In this document: positions 28,030 through 61,435 of the stretch, in pieces | Numbering within the stretch: position 1 is the stretch's first letter | Layout of the letters: each line of letters begins with the position of its first letter | Source of the DNA: Candidatus Bathyarchaeia archaeon | GTDB lineage: Archaea; Thermoproteota; Bathyarchaeia; 40CM-2-53-6 | Assembly: GCA_050013255.1 (NCBI GenBank) | Contig: JBEKFP010000001.1 | Coordinates: 1,216,001 to 1,280,000, forward strand | Direction of reading: 5' to 3' | Length of the DNA: 64,000 nucleotides | Translations under genes and position numbers: made by a program | Notes under the pieces: generated by a model | Database searches by the model: none | What the model was told of the DNA's origin: nothing | The model's input: only the letters and a program-made list of their open reading frames with translations

Positions 28030-28171
28030 GCGGGGGTAAGGTTCAGCATGAATCTCCCTAGAGCCAAGCCAGGTCTAAGGCGCAGGACTGAACACTCCTA
28101 AACGTTTCGAGTGTGTCCAGAGGCTCCTGTCCCGCAGGGGTTCCGGGGTTCGAATCCCCGCCCCCGCACCA
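28030..28171 (+). tRNA. tRNA-Leu(GAG) with two non-canonical introns (8/9: 28038-28061; 34/35: 28091-28120), CCA encoded
   Basis: Spliced sequence GCGGGGG TA GCC AAGCCAGGTCTAA GGC G CAGGA CT GAG GC TCCTG TCCCGCAGGGGTTC CGGGG TTCGAAT CCCCG CCCCCGC A CCA; both introns form BHB motifs. Confidence 0.92.
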
Positions 28172-53465: not shown

Positions 53466-53839
53466 AGTGAACTCTATAATCAGACCTGTGAACTAATCAT
53501 TGAATATAGCGTCACTGCAGACAATTGGGTGCAGTGACATCGCCATGAAATAGCCCAACTTCCTCTATCTACGCTTGACTATACCTAGATTACCTTACAG
53601 TTTGGCGAGGCGGGCTCGTACTGGGCAATGCGCTCTAGGTTGTAGGCACACCTCCCGCACACATTGTGCCCGCACTTCTGGCTAAGGCTAGAATGCAAAG
53701 GCTGCAAGGAAACTCAATTACGACTCAGATGGTCTGGCTAAATGTACTTCTTGCGGGCTCGAGGCTAAGCAGCTTTTTTGCTGACACTTCCGAATGCAAT
53801 TCTGTAGATTTGAGCTAGCGCGAAGTAGAGTCCTAACCT

Positions 53840-54115
53840 TTGAACAGTGTCAACAAGGCCCGGCAGTCGGGTAGAAAATCTCAGGTTCAGATAAGATTCG
53901 AAATTCTCGAATTCCTATTCTACAATGCAGGTTCCCATTCTAGGACTTCTCTTTGGCGGCGGGCGACTCAATTATCATACGACGATTTCCAAAAATATTT
54001 GGAATATCTGAAACAGAAGGGATTCGTCGAAGAAACAGGTGATGGGATTCGCCTAGCCACATCAGGAAAGGACGTTTACCTGAAACTGAGGGAAACACTG
54101 CCCTCGATACTCTAG
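53840..54115 (+). CDS. Winged-helix transcriptional regulator (HTH_45-like)
   Basis: RKSQVQIRFEILE...LSYDDFQKYLEYLKQKG. Confidence 0.8.
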   Translation: MNSVNKARQSGRKSQVQIRFEILEFLFYNAGSHSRTSLWRRATQLSYDDFQKYLEYLKQKGFVEETGDGIRLATSGKDVYLKLRETLPSIL

Positions 54116-54122
54116 AGCGGGT

Positions 54123-54584
54123 ATGTGCACCAATGGTGAGCTATTCCTATACCACGAACCAGGCAAATTACCGGGGAAGTTGACTATGACAGAGAAGCGA
54201 GACGAATACCCCGTTACGACTTTGCATCGGTTCCTGGAGGAAGCTTCGAAAGAGTTCAAACGATTCCGTTTCCAAGCCAAAGTGAACCTCATAGGGTCGA
54301 TCATCTTACTGGTCCTCGTTTCACGTTTCCTCCTCTTCGCTTTCATAAGTTTCGGGCCACCACCGTTTAACGAGGAACGTACCTTCAACCCCGGTCGTCC
54401 ACCTTCAATGATGCACTTTTTCCTGCCAGATTGGCTACTTCTGTTCGCGTCTCTCGCTGCGGTCCTCTGGTCGCTCGACGTTTGGATCAGTCAGCGCAAA
54501 TTCGTTTCCCGGTGGGGTGGGAGATTCGAGAAACTCGAGGCGTTGGAAAGGCGGTTCCTTCACGACGACACGCCCCAGAGTTAA
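54123..54584 (+). CDS. Hypothetical 2-TM protein
   Basis: Two TM helices, WGGRFEKL tail; start may be ~54186. Confidence 0.6.
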   Translation: MCTNGELFLYHEPGKLPGKLTMTEKRDEYPVTTLHRFLEEASKEFKRFRFQAKVNLIGSIILLVLVSRFLLFAFISFGPPPFNEERTFNPGRPPSMMHFFLPDWLLLFASLAAVLWSLDVWISQRKFVSRWGGRFEKLEALERRFLHDDTPQS

Positions 54585-54996
54585 TGCAATTGGAATCACA
54601 GTGATGCCTGGGCTCGGTTCACTTTTTGTTTCCTCAACTTCCTTGAAAGTCCGGTATGGCCTCTTGGTGTAAGTTGCAATAATGCCGCTTCAGCCGTAGC
54701 TTTGTGCTAAACCTTCTTTCACACAGAACGCATGTGTAGACTCCAATGATTGGCCTGAAACATGCGGCACGATGCCTTTGTTGCTGGTACATCTCGGTCA
54801 ATTCTTGCACTGAAATCTGACGAGTGACGTGGCTGGCTTATAATTGGGATTCATCTCCGGTGTGCACCAAGAATTTTCCTTGGGCATCGTCTAACGGTTT
54901 CCACTGTTAACCTCTGGTGCATACCAGAAGTGCCGCCTGTTTAAATCGCGAAGTCGCGGGGTTACGCAGTGTCGGTATGAGAGGTGATTAGCAGAA

Positions 54997-55206
54997 ATGA
55001 ATTTCGCAGAAACCATTTTGCAGGCAGCGTCGCATGGCCAATTCCCAATGCAGAGAGGGCCCCTTCCCATGCAAAATCCGTGGTTCGGTGCCTTCGGAGT
55101 AATCGCATTCGCTCAGCTACTGCTAGCCTTTGCAGCAGTCGCGGCACTTGTCTTCGTTGCTTGGAAGGTTGGCGGCTACTACGATGCCTTGAGGAAAAAA
55201 CTCTAA
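54997..55206 (+). CDS. Small membrane protein
   Basis: GAGGTGA Shine-Dalgarno upstream; one long TM. Confidence 0.55.
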   Translation: MNFAETILQAASHGQFPMQRGPLPMQNPWFGAFGVIAFAQLLLAFAAVAALVFVAWKVGGYYDALRKKL

Positions 55207-55390
55207 ATGGCAAGCGCTCGTGCTTGAGAGATAAATTCCTCTTTCCCTCTTTTCATTGTGGGTACTTATGCTCAGCTTCCGCGTGTTAATCACATTCGAT
55301 GGCATCTGCATACGATGCAGGTGAGTGAAAAAAGGAGAGCTGATGAACCAGGGTGCTCCAGGTTCATCGAGTTGGATCCGGAGGCTTCGT

Positions 55391-55810
55391 TTACTTGAAC
55401 TTCTTGAGGTTCGCGTTATCCTCGTTGAAGACCATTTCAAACATGCCCAAGACTGCTTTCTTGGTTGAAGCCTCATCCATGCCTTGCGCTACGAATTCGC
55501 CTTCAACTTCGACCTTAGTCTTTTCGCCCATTGGGGTGTAGGTGTGCGTATGCTTTGAGCCTTTCATTGGCCCAGAGAGCACTTCAGTTGACATTGATTT
55601 GGGGGGGCTCATGGTGATCTTCCATGATTCCGTGTGCTTAGATCCGTCTGGGTTTTTGACTTCAAGGTCGAGTGTCAATCCGTTCGCTGATTGGTCTCGC
55701 ATGCCTGCTACTTTGACCGCGCTGTGGGAATGTGCGTGCTCGTCGTTGATGTATCTCCAGATTTTTTCAACAGGGGCGTCGAAAACGCCATCGTCTTTTA
55801 TGTGAACCAT
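55391..55810 (-). CDS. SRPBCC (START-like) family protein
   Basis: FDAPVEKIW, SGPMKGS, C-terminal helix. Confidence 0.8.
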   Translation of the reverse strand: MVHIKDDGVFDAPVEKIWRYINDEHAHSHSAVKVAGMRDQSANGLTLDLEVKNPDGSKHTESWKITMSPPKSMSTEVLSGPMKGSKHTHTYTPMGEKTKVEVEGEFVAQGMDEASTKKAVLGMFEMVFNEDNANLKKFK

Positions 55811-56066
55811 TTTCGTTCATCAGTACATTACATATGACATGAATTTAACCATTGTAAAGGCTTCAAGCTCTTTCCATATGACCAACCATGCACGGGAATA
55901 GTCGTTCGTTCTGTCTATGACTCGCGCCGCTTTGCCTTCGATATGGATGCCGAAAGCAAGCAAGGTTCTATTGAAGATTGAGTCGGAGACATGACAGATT
56001 TTCCTCTTCTCACTCTATGCGGAAGCGAATTATGTGGCTTGAAGGTAGTCTAGTTTTCGTGTTCAA

Positions 56067-56720
56067 ATGGGCGACGAGAAGTTCGAAATCGACCTCGGGA
56101 ATCTTCTCACAAGACTCATCCCTGACAAGAACGGCTCGGCATTCACCAAGCTGGACGCTATCAAGGCGAAGCTGGTTAGGATGCACGATCAGAATCTGGT
56201 GAAAATCAACCACTCGGCTATGGAGATCATCTGTGCTAAGGATTTGATTATGAGGGGATATGATGTCGATGTTGAACATCGCTTGGAAGAATCCCTTGTC
56301 TGCGATCTGCTGGGGATCAAGGGTGACGGTAGGGCTATAGTTGAAATTGAGACGGGGTTCGTACCCCCAGAGCATGCATTGGACCCTACAGCATTTTGTT
56401 CGGCCAAGATTGCCAGCAAGATAGCTAGGTACAGCAAATTCGCTGACAAATTTACCCTAGCTTCGCCGCTCTACCAAATCCTGCCCATCCCCCTAACCTT
56501 CCTGAAACCCCCAAGAGTGAGAGAGCCCGAGGAGGTGAGGGAGACGAAGAGGCTATGCGACCGCTACTACGACAATCCACCCATACCCCTGAACGAGATA
56601 ACCACAGGCAGACTTCACTCGCTCTCCTTCATTGACGTGGACGCAGGAACAGTAAGGGAGGTCGACCCTGAAACCTACGCGGAATCGCTGCTCGGCATGT
56701 GGGATAAGATAAGGCAGTAA
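56067..56720 (+). CDS. Conserved archaeal protein with a PD-(D/E)XK-like motif
   Basis: VEH...VCD...IVEIETG. Confidence 0.65.
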   Translation: MGDEKFEIDLGNLLTRLIPDKNGSAFTKLDAIKAKLVRMHDQNLVKINHSAMEIICAKDLIMRGYDVDVEHRLEESLVCDLLGIKGDGRAIVEIETGFVPPEHALDPTAFCSAKIASKIARYSKFADKFTLASPLYQILPIPLTFLKPPRVREPEEVRETKRLCDRYYDNPPIPLNEITTGRLHSLSFIDVDAGTVREVDPETYAESLLGMWDKIRQ

Positions 56721-56953
56721 GTTGCCGCCCAACTTTCGAGGCAGATGTGGCTTTCCCTTCGCGAGGGACTTTCGACCCTCCCCTCGTCCAACGCCTTGGT
56801 TTTCCCTCACTCGGGCCTCACGGAGTTTCTGCGGTTTCCCGCTAGCGTCGTGACGCTACACCCGAGCGCTCATCGATCCACGTAACGACCCAAGGCAAAC
56901 CCTGGGACGGAAGCCGACCGACGAATCTACCCCTGTCTCGGTTGGGCAGCACC
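56721..56953 (-). ncRNA. Unassigned highly structured ncRNA candidate (~233 nt)
   Basis: Six nested long-range helices plus hairpins with GNRA loops; G-U pairs and GAAA/GUGA loops occur only on the minus strand. Confidence 0.7.
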
Positions 56954-57095
56954 ATAACATTGTCATCGCAGAGATAAGGGGGTTGCGGCTGGATTCCACA
57001 CGTCAAATGCGTTTTCCAGTGGAACATAGCAAGGTCGGGCTGCTCGCTACCTTCAAAAGGCCAAAACGCCACGACTCGATCAGGGTGCATGAACC

Positions 57096-57335
57096 ATGTC
57101 TAACCCAAACACTCACCATTGCACCAAAAGCTCTCTCACGATGGAATTTTCCTGGGCAAGGTTGCAATGGCTGGGGTTCAAGAGATCCTACCTCATAGGC
57201 GTTGGGAAGGTTTCCTGCGAGAAATGCGGACGGATATTTCCGATCGAGGAAGGCGCTGTTCAAAAGGCCTTGGCGAAAAGGGCGATTGAGTTCAAAGACG
57301 ACCTTCGAAAAATCGCGCTCGAAAACGGAAGTTAG
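57096..57335 (+). CDS. Small hypothetical protein, possible Zn-binder
   Basis: HHC...CEKC. Confidence 0.5.
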   Translation: MSNPNTHHCTKSSLTMEFSWARLQWLGFKRSYLIGVGKVSCEKCGRIFPIEEGAVQKALAKRAIEFKDDLRKIALENGS

Positions 57336-57587
57336 CTTGATTGGGTCGATTAACTCCAGTACCTATGGCCGTTCTAATGTGCCCAAGCTCTCGTTAATGC
57401 TCCTTGCTGGGTCAACACTCAACGCAAGATCATGTGTTGGTAATTTTCATGAGCATGAAACCTTTCGATTATCAACCAGCTGTCTTGCGGTTTTTCGGTT
57501 CAGCAGAACCATGAGCAGGTCTTTGTGAATCTTAATAGTTGAGTTCGCAGTGAGTTAGAGAGTCGCTTTACTTTGGATTGATGATTA

Positions 57588-58058
57588 ATGGCTGAAGATA
57601 AGATTGGCCAAATAATGAGTAAACCTGTCCGAACAGTGAAGCCCGACGAGAAGCTCACCGCGGCAGTCGCAGCAATGGACAACAACAGTATCGGTAGCGT
57701 CGTTGTTCTTGATGGCGAGACCGCTATCGGAATCATTACCGAGGGTGACGTAGTCGAGCAAATCTCGAAAGGAGCTCAAATCCTTCTTGAACCAGTAAAG
57801 CAAGTTATGTCAAAACCGCTCATCACAGGGACACCTGATATGGCCGTTCAGGACGCCGTGAACCTGATGCTCGAGAAAAGGATTCGTCAACTTCCCATCG
57901 TTGAAGGAAGCAAATTAGTTGGCATAGTTACCGATCGAGATTTGATGCGGTCGGTTCTCCGCGCCTCATACGAGAAGCTAAGCAAACCTAAGCTGCGGGA
58001 ATTAGAGCTTGAAGCGGCCAGGATAGCAGCCCAGATAGTTACACTGCTGAATCTCTAA
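57588..58058 (+). CDS. CBS domain pair protein
   Basis: IMSKPV, GIITEGD, GIVTDRD. Confidence 0.92.
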   Translation: MAEDKIGQIMSKPVRTVKPDEKLTAAVAAMDNNSIGSVVVLDGETAIGIITEGDVVEQISKGAQILLEPVKQVMSKPLITGTPDMAVQDAVNLMLEKRIRQLPIVEGSKLVGIVTDRDLMRSVLRASYEKLSKPKLRELELEAARIAAQIVTLLNL

Positions 58059-58076
58059 GCACTCTGATTCAACGTT

Positions 58077-59414
58077 TCATCGTCGCCGCGACAGAACGAC
58101 TGCGGCTACAATTGCAATGGCTGCCACTAATCCCGCAATTAGTACGAGCCCCGAGGGTTTGTCGGTTAAGGAAACTGTCGTTGCGGTAGGTTGCGTAGCT
58201 GCCGCGGTTGTTGTCGTCAATCCATTTCCTGCAAGCTGTCCGTAAAATGTGCCTGTGGGGGAGAACTGGTTGTTCAGAATATTCTGGGACGCAACCCTAC
58301 CTAGCGCTGTTGCGAGGTCCTGATAGGATAAGCCCGCAGTACTCGAGGTGTAATCGACGTATCCAAAGAATTGCATGCTCCAGAAGGGCGAGATGTAACC
58401 AATCCCCTCAACCTTCGCCGCCGTAACCATCACCGCCAAGAACTCTTGGTCCAACGGTACCCAGAAGCTGAACGCATCATTGCGAAAAACGTCGACGTTT
58501 GAGACTATGCTCGAGGCCTGCAGCGTCCCAACCTTATACAACCAAGCCTCATCCAACACCACGCGCTTCCCGTATTGTTTGGCGATGTCAGAGAACGTGA
58601 GGAGCCGCTGAAGAGTTGGGCCGACGACCGGGTAAACGTGTAACGAGATAAAATCTAGGCTGGTGTTCACCCCAAGGCTCTGCACATACGTGTTGCTAAG
58701 CCATGTCCCACTTCCAGCTCCGAGCTTAGTGTGGCCTCGATTCAAATCTTCCAGAATGTGGTTTACATACGTCGTGTAGGAGTTGGGGGAATTGAACTCA
58801 GTGAAACCGGTCAGCTTATACTGCGTGTCAGGCTCCGCGCCCAAATCCAAGTAGTCCGGTTGCAGGTCTTGAATGAACGCCGAAACCATTTCCTTCCTCT
58901 CCGCTTCGAACTGCTGCGGAGTCAACTTCGAGTAATCGAAGGTTATCGGTGAAAATGCCGTATTCGCGAACAGTATAGAGGATTCAATTTCAACCATCCC
59001 GCGCTTCCTAACCTCTTGTACAACCTGCTTGTAGAACTGCACGTAGGCCGAATAGTCGGGAAAGCTAGGTGTGTATAAGGGGAAACCAATTGGGAAGGTG
59101 ACGCCGCCTATGCCCAGTTCCTTAAGCCGGTCCAAGTACAGGATCACGGCCTGCATCGTATTCGGCGCGAGCAACGCATCCTCCCGATTCGAGTTCGCAG
59201 GTAACAGCTCTGCACCGAAAATTGGCGAACCTGTCCCAGGGCCCATGGTGGCTAGGGTGGCGTTGAAATCGTCCAGACTCGATTTGAGCGTTGAATAGAG
59301 CTGCTGGTACTCCGGCGGAACTTGAGCAGTCTGAGCCGCTCCAGAGAACGCAGAAGCAGTTGGAACTGCGAGCAAACCAAGCAGAAACAGGACACTAACC
59401 TGATAGGCGTTCAA
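58077..59414 (-). CDS. Secreted, C-terminally anchored TIM-barrel glycoside hydrolase-like protein
   Basis: Signal peptide, GAEPD and VLDEAW clan GH-A-like glutamates, LDFISLHVYP, Thr-rich linker, TM plus RRR. Confidence 0.65.
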   Translation of the reverse strand: MNAYQVSVLFLLGLLAVPTASAFSGAAQTAQVPPEYQQLYSTLKSSLDDFNATLATMGPGTGSPIFGAELLPANSNREDALLAPNTMQAVILYLDRLKELGIGGVTFPIGFPLYTPSFPDYSAYVQFYKQVVQEVRKRGMVEIESSILFANTAFSPITFDYSKLTPQQFEAERKEMVSAFIQDLQPDYLDLGAEPDTQYKLTGFTEFNSPNSYTTYVNHILEDLNRGHTKLGAGSGTWLSNTYVQSLGVNTSLDFISLHVYPVVGPTLQRLLTFSDIAKQYGKRVVLDEAWLYKVGTLQASSIVSNVDVFRNDAFSFWVPLDQEFLAVMVTAAKVEGIGYISPFWSMQFFGYVDYTSSTAGLSYQDLATALGRVASQNILNNQFSPTGTFYGQLAGNGLTTTTAAATQPTATTVSLTDKPSGLVLIAGLVAAIAIVAAVVLSRRR

Positions 59415-59484
59415 GTAGACTCGACCGCGAGAGGTCAGCTGGAGATTTTCAATATTAGGGGTTGTGAACGAATCGTCCTCAATT

Positions 59485-59850
59485 CTACGAGGTTTCAATT
59501 GCGATGAGCGTGGACAGTGAGAACCAGTCGTCGATGATTTCTTTCGTTGCCTTCTCGTAGTATTTTTCGTAAAGTGCAACTTTGCACCGCCATGCTTCAT
59601 CCGGGTCTTCGTTGATGTAGTGGCCTTTTCCCGTGAAATTTTCTCCACCTATCTCGAATGAGACCTCGCAGTTCTGCTTGATGTTCTTCATCCAATCCGT
59701 CTCCTTCCCCTCGTGGCTGAGGAAGACCTTACCATCACTGGCTGCAAACCACAACTCTACACTGTGCGGTCGCCCCGTCTTTCGTCCCTTCGTCGTGAGG
59801 TGAATGAGTTTCTGAGATCTGACTTTCATCAAGTTGTCTGCATAGGCCAT
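59485..59850 (-). CDS. Deazaflavin-dependent nitroreductase-like (split barrel) protein
   Basis: LTTKGRKTGRPH...WF...DWMKNI. Confidence 0.8.
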   Translation of the reverse strand: MAYADNLMKVRSQKLIHLTTKGRKTGRPHSVELWFAASDGKVFLSHEGKETDWMKNIKQNCEVSFEIGGENFTGKGHYINEDPDEAWRCKVALYEKYYEKATKEIIDDWFSLSTLIAIETS

Positions 59851-60100: not shown

Positions 60101-61435
60101 CTATGCCTTTTCATGATCCAGATCTTTGAGCGTTTTCTGGTATTCTTCGCGTGAAATTTCTCCGGAGGCGTAGCGTTTTCTCAGGATTTGCGTCGGTGTT
60201 TCCTCAGTTCGTTGTGGTTTCAGTTTCAGTTTGGTTTTGGTGAGCGTCGTGCCCATGTTTGTCCCTATGCCTCTTCTTCTTGCCAAGACGGCGGCAGCGA
60301 TCAAAGCCAGCAAGAGCAGAATAATGACAACGGTTGGGGTGGTCATATCTTCTCTAAAGATGGCTGCGACTGTCTTAGGTGAGTCAACGGTGATGGATGC
60401 AGGATTCGAAGTAGCCCCGACACTCCAATGGTCGAAAACCAGCTTCGCCCCCAATGCCTGCCAGGCATCGTGTGTTGGACCTTCGCTTTCTACTTGAACA
60501 GTGGCTTTCGAGCCTTCGTCATACCACCCTGTTCCAGTGGGATTTCCGTAGTCTGACTTGACTTCTACGTAGTATTGTTTATGGTAAACGGCGGCGGCCG
60601 TGTAGGACTGGTCCATTGTGATCGTAGTTTGCGGAGAATTCACATCCGCACCATTCAGGTTCCACGCAACGAACATATCTCTAGTGTCTGACGTAACCTG
60701 TACCATCGGGTCTGTGCTTAGACTCACGGATGAGCCTTTGGCATACCACCCCGAGGGAGAGCTGGTTCCACCCTGAGCATTTTGGACAGTCAGTTGATAT
60801 TGGTTTTCGTAGGTGAATGTGTAGCTTTGGTCGAAGGGTTGGGTTACTGTCTGTGTGGTTGGAACATAGTACGGATAGTAGTAGTACCAAGAGTAGTCTG
60901 GATAGGAGTAGTACCACCAGTCGTAGTAAGGCGAGTAGTACTCTGTGTAACTTGTTACGGATACGTCCTTTCCTTTCTCGCTCGTCCACGAAGTTCCCTT
61001 GGCGTAGAACCTCTCACCACTCTTTCCGCTAACGTAGGAATCGACTTGGTACGTGTGGATGTCGTCGCCTTTGATCTGGAATTTTGCTGTGCCTCCACCT
61101 GCGATTGATGCTACACTCTTTCCGTCGGCCAGAAGGGTAGTCGAGTAATCAGACGGGAATCCTTGGATGGATATTGTAATTGTCGCCGTTGTGACTTTCA
61201 CGGTCTGCCCTTGGTAATTCTCAGACCAGTAAGAAGGAAACGGCCCGGCCCATGGGATGTAAGTTCCAGACGTGTTATAGCCAAAGTAGCATGGCGAACT
61301 TGAACTGCAAGTTGTGCCGTCCGCCCTGACAGGGATTGGGGCAAAGGCGAAAAGCACTAAGATAACTGCGACGATCACGGGAGAACTAAATAGCGTACGC
61401 AAAGTATATCGCGATTTTGTTCTGACCTCAGGCAC
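60101..61435 (-). CDS. Cell-surface protein with beta repeats, Tyr-rich insert, TM and SHOCT domain
   Basis: Signal peptide, GWY..G repeats, ILRKRYASGEISREEY SHOCT motif. Confidence 0.8.
   Translation of the reverse strand: MPEVRTKSRYTLRTLFSSPVIVAVILVLFAFAPIPVRADGTTCSSSSPCYFGYNTSGTYIPWAGPFPSYWSENYQGQTVKVTTATITISIQGFPSDYSTTLLADGKSVASIAGGGTAKFQIKGDDIHTYQVDSYVSGKSGERFYAKGTSWTSEKGKDVSVTSYTEYYSPYYDWWYYSYPDYSWYYYYPYYVPTTQTVTQPFDQSYTFTYENQYQLTVQNAQGGTSSPSGWYAKGSSVSLSTDPMVQVTSDTRDMFVAWNLNGADVNSPQTTITMDQSYTAAAVYHKQYYVEVKSDYGNPTGTGWYDEGSKATVQVESEGPTHDAWQALGAKLVFDHWSVGATSNPASITVDSPKTVAAIFREDMTTPTVVIILLLLALIAAAVLARRRGIGTNMGTTLTKTKLKLKPQRTEETPTQILRKRYASGEISREEYQKTLKDLDHEKA

Follow-up and report, generated by a model that had tools for sequence, protein, structure and literature searches.

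The 64,000-nt window analysed here (contig JBEKFP010000001.1 of a Candidatus Bathyarchaeia archaeon, positions 1,216,001 to 1,280,000) carries on its minus strand, at 56953-56721, a structured non-coding RNA of about 230 nt that was previously uncatalogued and that occurs in Bathyarchaeia and in ammonia-oxidising archaea (AOA). We are highly confident that it is a real RNA gene, old and structurally conserved, of a family absent from Rfam 15. Its surroundings suggest an independently transcribed gene with its own TATA box. The base of the RNA appears to form a motif of the bulge-helix-bulge (BHB) type made of the terminal helix P1, a 4-bp helix and two 3-nt bulges. Neighbourhood and co-occurrence indicate that the RNA is likely coupled in some way to the product of the adjacent gene p217, an unclassified protein with a predicted PD-(D/E)xK fold. 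We propose a new structured RNA gene family that would be excised at the BHB motif, circularised and work with p217, a combination that we consider to have an even chance of being correct.

Identity, distribution and fold of the RNA

A first-pass annotation of the window had proposed a multi-helix RNA at this position and on this strand, not assignable to a family and possibly undescribed. The covariance model R1, built from seven close copies, matches 56725-56953 (-). The minus strand of 56953-56721 folds at -112.3 kcal/mol (z = -4.5), equalled by none of 200 shuffles, and the plus strand folds more weakly (z = -2.2). At the gathering thresholds of Rfam 15 there were no matches in the whole window or at 17 loci. 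At E ≤ 5 there were none in eight homologous loci, and at E ≤ 10 the 700-base region around the RNA gave only three noise matches, each of at most 17 bits. With covarying homologues in two archaeal classes, described below, and no RNase P, signal recognition particle (SRP) or other Rfam family at the locus, the first-pass view of a structured archaeal RNA without an assignable family is borne out. In the literature we found no description of the RNA or of the p217 protein, which does not prove that none exists.

Several candidate identities were rejected. The archaeal RNase P RNA of the same genome (RF00373, 175 bits) lies at a separate locus and its archaeal SRP RNA (RF01857, 162 bits) on contig 2; the RNA is therefore neither of the two, since both are present, full-scoring, at other loci. 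The model for type T RNase P (RF02357) gave no match, though the control genomes gave none either. The first-pass annotation had seen neither the SRP helix-8 motif nor the RNase P regions CR-I and CR-V in the right order, and this was confirmed: GGCUU precedes GAAAGCC, in swapped order, and their pairing is kept in only ~62% of cases. No tRNA or transfer-messenger RNA was called. The RNA is non-coding, because what separates close copies are single-base indels and compensated changes in the stems. The assembly of 2.46 Mb contains a single copy, and there is no target-site duplication at the empty site of a congener (G004), which disposes of the miniature inverted-repeat transposable element that had been raised earlier. 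A riboswitch or cis-regulatory leader does not fit either, as the downstream genes are convergent or unrelated and most AOA copies have a T-rich stretch behind P1. A type III toxin-antitoxin RNA was likewise discarded: there are no tandem repeats within the RNA, the gene order varies and PADLOC gave no match. Reading the conserved loops as a K-turn, a sarcin-ricin loop or a cobalamin core gave a poor fit, a weak judgement made by inspection against consensus motifs.

BLAST and R1 together detected the RNA in eight of 105 genomes of the same order, among them four congeners, two members of another family and one member of a third. We also collected the loci around p217 relatives from 185,579 species genomes; they belong to Bathyarchaeia and many Nitrososphaeria, and R1 found the RNA there in Nitrosocaldus, Nitrosomirales, Nitrososphaera and other lineages. 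Whole-genome searches yielded additional copies. In total, 32 homologues from about five clades were aligned (alignments A3 and A7), including Bathyarchaeia, Nitrosocaldales, Nitrososphaera and other Nitrososphaeria. The helix statistics given here refer to 25 of them (A3), and the features of the BHB motif were checked in these 25 and in seven further sequences. In an even sample of 151 Nitrososphaeria genomes the RNA was found in six, probably an under-count because a sequence-only model (R2) with strict filters was used. One Nitrososphaeraceae genome (G106) has three copies (L128, L129 and L130), none of them near p217. Two of these share a near-identical 60-nt promoter region and therefore represent a recent duplication, promoter included.

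The homologues share one fold. Over the eight helices 94.3% of the alignment cells are paired, and 57 of the 63 base pairs have changed on both sides. The covariation score is 0.764; sliding the 3' partners by one to three columns brings it down to ~0.10, and none of 500 shuffles comes up to 0.764. As A3 was fitted to R1, helices P3 and P3a were rechecked on an alignment made with MAFFT only (A5), in which they are 88% paired with 17 of 19 pairs changed on both sides, the slid controls giving 29-46%. P1 leads into P2, and P2 closes a four-way junction with the arms P3/P3a, P4/P4a/P4b, which ends in a GNRA loop, and P5 (Table 1). The stem of the P4b hairpin covaries. The junction strands CGArAnA, GGGnnAAC and GAAAGCCACAU are nearly invariant; in J4/5, residues G63, G65, A68 and C70 (numbering of alignment A6) are invariant, and G64 and A69 are conserved in at least 90% of the sequences. 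An all-against-all scan of column covariation for tertiary pairs was swamped by clade structure and unusable. A pseudoknot between GGCUU and AAGCC was rejected, as the two are complementary in ~15 of 25 sequences with no compensation. Nitrosocaldus and Nitrososphaera do not keep the pairing, which is at best a feature of particular lineages. In the promoter region of p217, ATGTGGCTT at 56032-56040 (+) is complementary over all of its 9 nt to the RNA's conserved AAGCCACAU strand. A functional pairing of this site with the GAAAGCCACAU strand was not accepted: all 9 nt match in this genome only and 8 nt in its two closest relatives, so that the complementarity is probably due to chance.

About half of the helices first proposed from the single sequence were wrong. 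P1 stood, the helix then called P6 is the conserved P4, and the hairpin GCGG-GAAA-CCGC is the GNRA-looped P4b, all backed by covariation. Of the former P2 (56940-33/56744-37) the first four pairs, CGAG/CUCG, were retained and are paired in all 25 sequences; the other half was lost. The former P3 (GGCUUCC/GGAAAGCC, ~62% paired) and P5 (GCCUUGG/CCAAGGC, 65%) show hardly any compensatory change. The former P4 (CGUCC/GGACG) is paired in 43%, the hairpins TAGCGT/ACGCTA and GAGGG/CCCTC in 39% and 42%, and the CC-GUGA-GG hairpin is weak. Pooled, the helices found only in the first-pass annotation are 58.8% paired, compared with 55.9% in shuffled controls; the former P3, P4 and P5 and the hairpins TAGCGT/ACGCTA and GAGGG/CCCTC are lineage-specific or chance pairings. 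The conserved helices that were lacking are P2 (56933-25/56746-38), P3, P3a, P4a and P5.

The TTATC box noticed earlier upstream of the RNA is TATA-like, and stronger TATA boxes occupy the same distance in every lineage: each of the 28 upstream regions printed has a box 19-21 nt ahead of the first model position. In the AOA copies its sequence is TTTATATC or CTTAAAT. Nearly all of the AOA copies printed, and one copy from Bathyarchaeia, have a T-rich stretch behind P1. The close Bathyarchaeia copies have only a pyrimidine-rich region there, which is the antisense of the end of the p217 coding sequence. The TATA box, the T-rich stretch and the G-U pairs fix the strand and argue for an independent primary transcript that would begin and end at P1.

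A candidate bulge-helix-bulge motif and its predicted product

Between P1 and P2, every sequence contains four bases that pair perfectly with the four bases ahead of the 3-nt stretch preceding the 3' strand of P1. This 4-bp helix lay outside the model that made the alignment. It occurs, for example, as CGAG/CUCG, CGAA/UUCG, CAGG/CCUG or CGGG/CCCG; all 25 sequences have it fully paired, with changes on both sides at three of the four pairs. Both bulges are exactly 3 nt long in 32 of 32 sequences and stand in the canonical orientation, each 3' of its helix strand. The outer helix h, which is P1, has 9-11 bp. By definition, a BHB motif has a 3-nt bulge on either side of a 4-bp helix, and anticodon positions 34-35 fall within that helix (PMC4090602); the latter places the cut after the second base of the bulge.

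If the motif is a substrate of the splicing endonuclease EndA, cleavage would fall behind the second base of each bulge, and ligation of the ends by RtcB would yield a 200-nt circular RNA (56934..56735). In this circle the three bases that are paired with CGAG in the precursor would re-pair with GGG, completing P2, and the junction G-A-R/A (the slash marks the ligation point) would become a GNRA tetraloop. All 32 sequences have GAAA or GAGA at the predicted junction, and the circular minimum-energy folds of 11 out of 11 homologues place a 4-nt junction loop on P2. In every sequence, bases 300-302 of the 3' strand (A3) are complementary also to the first three bases of P2, a double complementarity that is understandable if the pairing in the 4-bp helix belongs to the precursor and that in P2 to the product. 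The bulge bases that would be retained in the circle, A20, A304 and R305, are invariant or purine-only. Among those that would be discarded, columns 19 and 306 vary freely and column 18, the first base of the 5' bulge, is A in all but two sequences.

The genome encodes two EndA paralogues (tRNA_int_endo genes) and RtcB. Two paralogues indicate an EndA of the alpha2beta2 type, which is lenient (PMC4090602). Excision of archaeal 23S rRNA at a BHB motif gives a circle in which a GNRA tetraloop caps the ligation point (PMC12918454), and other non-tRNA substrates of EndA are known (PMC7714728; PMC4731332). The large subunit (LSU) rRNA model (RF02540), sought as a control for a 23S BHB motif within the genome, had no match in its three contigs. 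The marker completeness is given as 100% despite this, and the rRNA may be unassembled. The RtcB match, on contig 1 outside the window (110968-113778), is split within one 1039-aa open frame: profile positions 1-60 and 49-426 match separately, with about 1.4 kb between them, which looks like an intein or another insertion. ARAGORN called no tRNA at 28030-28171 of the window, a candidate site of a multi-intron tRNA; such archaeal tRNAs are expected to escape this program.

Alternatively, the RNA may be a stable linear molecule, with or without a role for p217, that keeps P1 when mature and is not processed by EndA, the 7-by-4-nt internal loop between P1 and P2 (CGArAnA/GArN) serving as a tertiary or protein-binding motif. 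This we regard as possible but somewhat doubtful, and some of the observations that speak for it also weigh against processing. The minimum-energy folds of the linear precursor choose P2 with the internal loop, a register that nearest-neighbour energies make 3-4.5 kcal/mol more stable than that of the BHB motif. P1 is long and covaries strongly. If the 5' bulge is set strictly to 3 nt, the Bathyarchaeia copies have a weak inner helix h', of 1 bp followed by a mismatch; in the other lineages it reaches at least 2 bp. The GNRA junction needs just two extra conserved bases, which may be conserved for another reason. The alignment holds few independent clades, and because transition-type covariation between unrelated columns is common in it, the 4-bp helix rests mainly on its contiguity and its 100% pairing. 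A linear RNA, however, leaves three things without explanation: the complementarity of bases 300-302 to two separate 5' segments in 25 of 25 sequences, the unpaired stretches of exactly 3 nt beside the 4-bp helix everywhere, and the match of bulge conservation to the predicted cut sites. On balance, maturation by BHB excision and circularisation, predicted from sequence features, seems to us as probable as its contrary.

Table 1 Features of the RNA, its predicted product and the neighbouring gene (positions in the window; a slash in the junction marks the ligation point).
Feature	Position	Strand	Basis or remark
Putative primary transcript, ~230 nt, precursor closed by P1	56721..56953	-	Covariance model match, fold z -4.5, homologues
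TATA-like box CTTATC	56973..56978	-	~20 nt ahead of first model position
P1 5' strand (outer helix h of BHB-like motif; candidate processing stem)	56941..56951	-	99.6% paired, 9/9 pairs changed on both sides
P1 3' strand	56723..56733	-	Same helix statistics as P1 5' strand
H 5' strand CGAG, central 4-bp helix of BHB-like motif	56937..56940	-	25/25 paired
H 3' strand CUCG; first three bases also pair with 56933-56931 in P2	56737..56740	-	Dual complementarity
5' bulge ACA, predicted cut 56935/56934, third base A invariant	56934..56936	-	3 nt everywhere
3' bulge AAA, predicted cut 56735/56734; first base A and second base purine in all	56734..56736	-	
Predicted 200-nt circle, junction G-A-A/A as GNRA loop capping P2	56735..56934	-	Circular folds; inferred
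P2 5' strand (GGGGUAGAU)	56925..56933	-	96.7% paired; inner pairs with transversion covariation
P2 3' strand (AUCUGCCUC)	56738..56746	-	Helix 2 of the 25-sequence test
P3 (56924-16 with 56878-70) enclosing hairpin P3a (56909-00 with 56895-86)	56870..56924	-	Covariation
P4 (56868-61 with 56815-08), P4a, internal loop, P4b, GNRA loop 56838-35	56808..56868	-	Helices 5-7
J4/5 junction strand AGGGAAAACC, consensus GGGnnAAC	56798..56807	-	Alignment A6
P5 hairpin (56794-86 with 56769-61)	56761..56794	-	9/9 pairs changed on both sides
J5/2 junction strand GGGAAAGCCAC(AU), most conserved single-stranded motif	56747..56757	-	
p217, 217-aa protein of predicted PD-(D/E)xK fold, convergent with the RNA	56067..56720	+	Stop codon 2 nt from last P1 base
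Two-gene cassette (p217 and RNA), ~1 kb, absent from collinear site of G004	55987..57031	.	

The p217 protein and its linkage to the RNA

Among the eight RNA-bearing genomes of the order, p217 is 55-82% identical (tblastn). Searches against Pfam, NCBIfam, PADLOC and the PDB sequences gave no match, and its 2,815 relatives are all annotated as hypothetical proteins. In its AlphaFold (AF2) model (predicted local distance difference test score, pLDDT, 97), residues 46-201 form a PD-(D/E)xK fold. The structure matches 3dnx with a Z score of 9.4, XisH with 9.1, AF1548 with 8.3, and NucS and Can2 with 6.8. Residues H49, E70, D80, E93 and K118 are invariant in 48 diverse members. Judged from this model, p217 is a member of the PD-(D/E)xK nuclease superfamily, both its fold and its putative active-site residues (E70, D80, E93 and K118) being in keeping.

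The RNA is usually a neighbour of p217, and three arrangements of the pair occur. Each of the eight carriers in the order has it directly against the 3' end of p217, and the layout in Bathyarchaeia is convergent. Nitrosocaldales and several other Nitrososphaeria have both genes on one strand, with the RNA ~90 nt downstream of p217, and in Nitrososphaera the RNA is found 1.3 kb upstream, behind a 3-hydroxyacyl-CoA dehydrogenase (3HCDH) gene divergent from p217. Within the order p217 is present in 25 of 105 genomes and in each of the eight RNA carriers; in the Nitrososphaeria sample it is present, always as a single copy, in 68 of 151 genomes and in 6/6 RNA carriers. Because these genomes are phylogenetically related, the counts are to be read as a description and not as a statistical test. 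The p217 tree broadly follows the organisms and has RNA-linked genes in both its Bathyarchaeia and its Nitrososphaeria branches; as the trait needs at least three to five changes, the pairing would therefore be old and have been lost or relocated many times. In a weaker step of the proposal, the mature RNA may work with p217, be it as a partner bound to the protein, as its regulator or as its substrate. Having no variable segment, the RNA does not qualify as a programmable guide.

Other observations weigh against such a partnership. p217 is far more widespread than the RNA, which was absent from the 3 kb around 33 further p217 genes (17 of Bathyarchaeia, 16 of Nitrososphaeria) when searched with filters off. 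The three copies in G106 are unlinked to p217, and the protein is mildly acidic. Its neighbours XPB, Hjc and DNA ligase hint at DNA repair and not at work on RNA. An XPB/Rad25-type helicase is convergent with p217 in 26 Nitrososphaeraceae loci (e.g. L103, 3643-4962 (-)), and a Hjc resolvase and an ATP-dependent DNA ligase occur at others (L180, 1805-2353; L182, 432-2111). The gene immediately upstream of p217 in Nitrosocaldus and relatives encodes a 129-aa JAB/MPN-domain protein (L052, 2556-2945 (+); also at seven related loci). Four metagenomic loci, also searched with filters off, lacked the RNA, and the GC-rich gap next to one RNA-less p217 gene was not significantly structured.

In Bathyarchaeia, p217 and the RNA are present or absent as a unit. 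The congener G004, whose flanks are 92% identical, has 12 bases in place of 55987-57031. In other genomic contexts homology is confined to 56031-56988 and the surroundings differ. The ends of the cassette have no terminal repeats, target duplication or conserved ends. The clean presence/absence polymorphism of the two genes among close relatives, the differing contexts and the patchy distribution (eight of 105 genomes in the order) would suit a selfish or defence cassette, gained and lost as a unit, in which the RNA would, on the model of RNA-antitoxin systems, neutralise or regulate p217, a nuclease with a toxic or defensive role on this view. It would also suit this idea that the p217 of another family (G029, G037) is as similar to the copy in the window as is that of a congener. 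We nevertheless consider it unlikely. PADLOC gave no match, no close relative was found on viral contigs by the peptide patterns of this one protein, and there are no terminal repeats, no target duplication and no tandem-repeat RNA. The p217 of Nitrososphaeria is single-copy and stands in the conserved housekeeping synteny 3HCDH-p217-XPB (3HCDH at 46 loci, the XPB-type helicase at 26), and its tree broadly follows the organisms.

The region around the cassette, 53800-58100, is an indel hot spot in comparison with G004 contig 25 and G014 contig 12. Within a shared framework of conserved genes, ~1.7 kb and 1.5 kb are additional in G004 and 1.8 kb in G018, and ~3.2 kb are lacking in G014. A 79-aa zinc-ribbon-like open reading frame with a weak Trm112-like match (57096-57335 (+)) is divergent from the RNA and lies outside the module, because it is kept at 92% identity in the cassette-less relatives G004 and G014. 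Two genes further on, at 58077-59648 (-) and 60101-61435 (-), encode large predicted secreted or membrane-anchored proteins of 523 and 444 aa, the former with no match in Pfam.

Comparison with known systems

The RNA could also be a divergent or circularly permuted member of a known family (RNase P, SRP or a riboswitch aptamer such as cobalamin) that Rfam missed, an explanation that is largely refuted and that we hold very improbable. There is a faint likeness of GAAAGCC and GGCUU to the P4 strands of RNase P in swapped order, and of GCCAC and GGGAA to the cobalamin core. Circularisation, if it occurs, would make a permuted order possible, as in the SRP RNA of Thermoproteus (PMC4731332). However, the cmscan searches described above gave nothing credible here or in the eight homologous loci, the genome has full-scoring RNase P and SRP RNAs, the GGCUU/AAGCC pairing is lost outside some lineages, and no regulated gene lies downstream of the RNA, whose P1 has a T-rich stretch behind it in most AOA copies. 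That the element belongs to the p217 mRNA in cis, as a structured 3' untranslated region, a terminator or an antisense regulator, is suggested by the 2 nt between the 3' ends in the window and by the ~90-nt same-strand spacing in several Nitrososphaeria, but is most improbable given a TATA box of its own at a fixed distance in every lineage, its opposite strand here, its place 1.3 kb off behind another gene in Nitrososphaera, the unlinked copies, and a strand fixed by G-U pairs and promoter direction.

At its boldest, the proposal of an excised and circularised RNA would add a new class to the circular non-coding RNAs of archaea: from the transcript of a stand-alone gene, the tRNA-splicing machinery would cut out and close, by way of a BHB motif built into it, a 200-nt circle with a four-way junction. 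The circle would be the dedicated cofactor, regulator or substrate of p217, which would stand for a PD-(D/E)xK nuclease family not recognised before, in a pairing older than the split between Bathyarchaeia and Nitrososphaeria. We advance this version tentatively, as rather less probable than not. Few structured RNA classes of archaea are known beyond the universal ones. Conservation of this RNA extends over the Bathyarchaeia and the ammonia-oxidising Nitrososphaeria, both of them major groups that are ecologically dominant and for the most part uncultured. If the predicted processing is true, its gene would be a stand-alone one, neither rRNA nor tRNA, with a product that is circular by design; it would extend the role of the splicing endonuclease and offer a clean model for the function of circular RNA in archaea. 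The prediction is exact to the base, with 56735 joined to 56934 to form GAAA. For the RNA and for p217, a protein that is single-copy in ~45% of the sampled Nitrososphaeria and often neighbours XPB, Hjc or DNA ligase, their partnership offers a lead that can be tested.

Compared with characterised systems, the RNA resembles RNase P RNA (RF00373, RF02357) in size, in its nested multi-helix fold and in its purine-rich conserved junction strands. It differs in that no model matches, the P4-like strands are swapped and the genome already has a canonical RNase P RNA. Like the omega RNAs of TnpB and IscB (HEARO), for which circular isoforms are known in archaea (PMC12558985), it is a structured RNA of ~200 nt that lies beside a nuclease-type gene in many genomes. 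Unlike them, its partner has a predicted PD-(D/E)xK and not a RuvC or HNH fold, transposon ends and an Rfam match are absent, and the RNA appears to have its own promoter, lies on either strand and shows no variable guide segment among close relatives (A2). A guide RNA of the omega or tracrRNA/crRNA kind was rejected, as copies of 92-95% identity differ by scattered, mostly compensated changes and have no repeats and no conserved ends. The predicted structure of p217 shares its core fold with XisH, SPO1766 (3dnx), AF1548 and NucS/EndoMS (Z 9.4 to 6.8) and the same arrangement of Glu, Asp, Glu-x-Glu and a Lys on the following helix; it differs from them by an additional N-terminal helical hairpin, a C-terminal subdomain and the lack of membership in a sequence family.

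The closest comparison is with the BHB-excised circles of archaea, those of 23S rRNA and pre-rRNA, of tRNA introns and of the permuted SRP RNA of Thermoproteus (PMC12918454, PMC7714728, PMC4731332). The RNA differs from these in being neither rRNA, tRNA nor SRP RNA but a stand-alone 230-nt gene with, it appears, its own promoter, in its non-canonical inner helix in Bathyarchaeia, and in a circularisation that is a prediction only. It shares with them a long terminal stem and a 4-bp helix between 3-nt bulges. As in circular 23S rRNA, its predicted ligation junction is a GNRA tetraloop on the closing helix (PMC12918454), and EndA and RtcB are both encoded in the genome.

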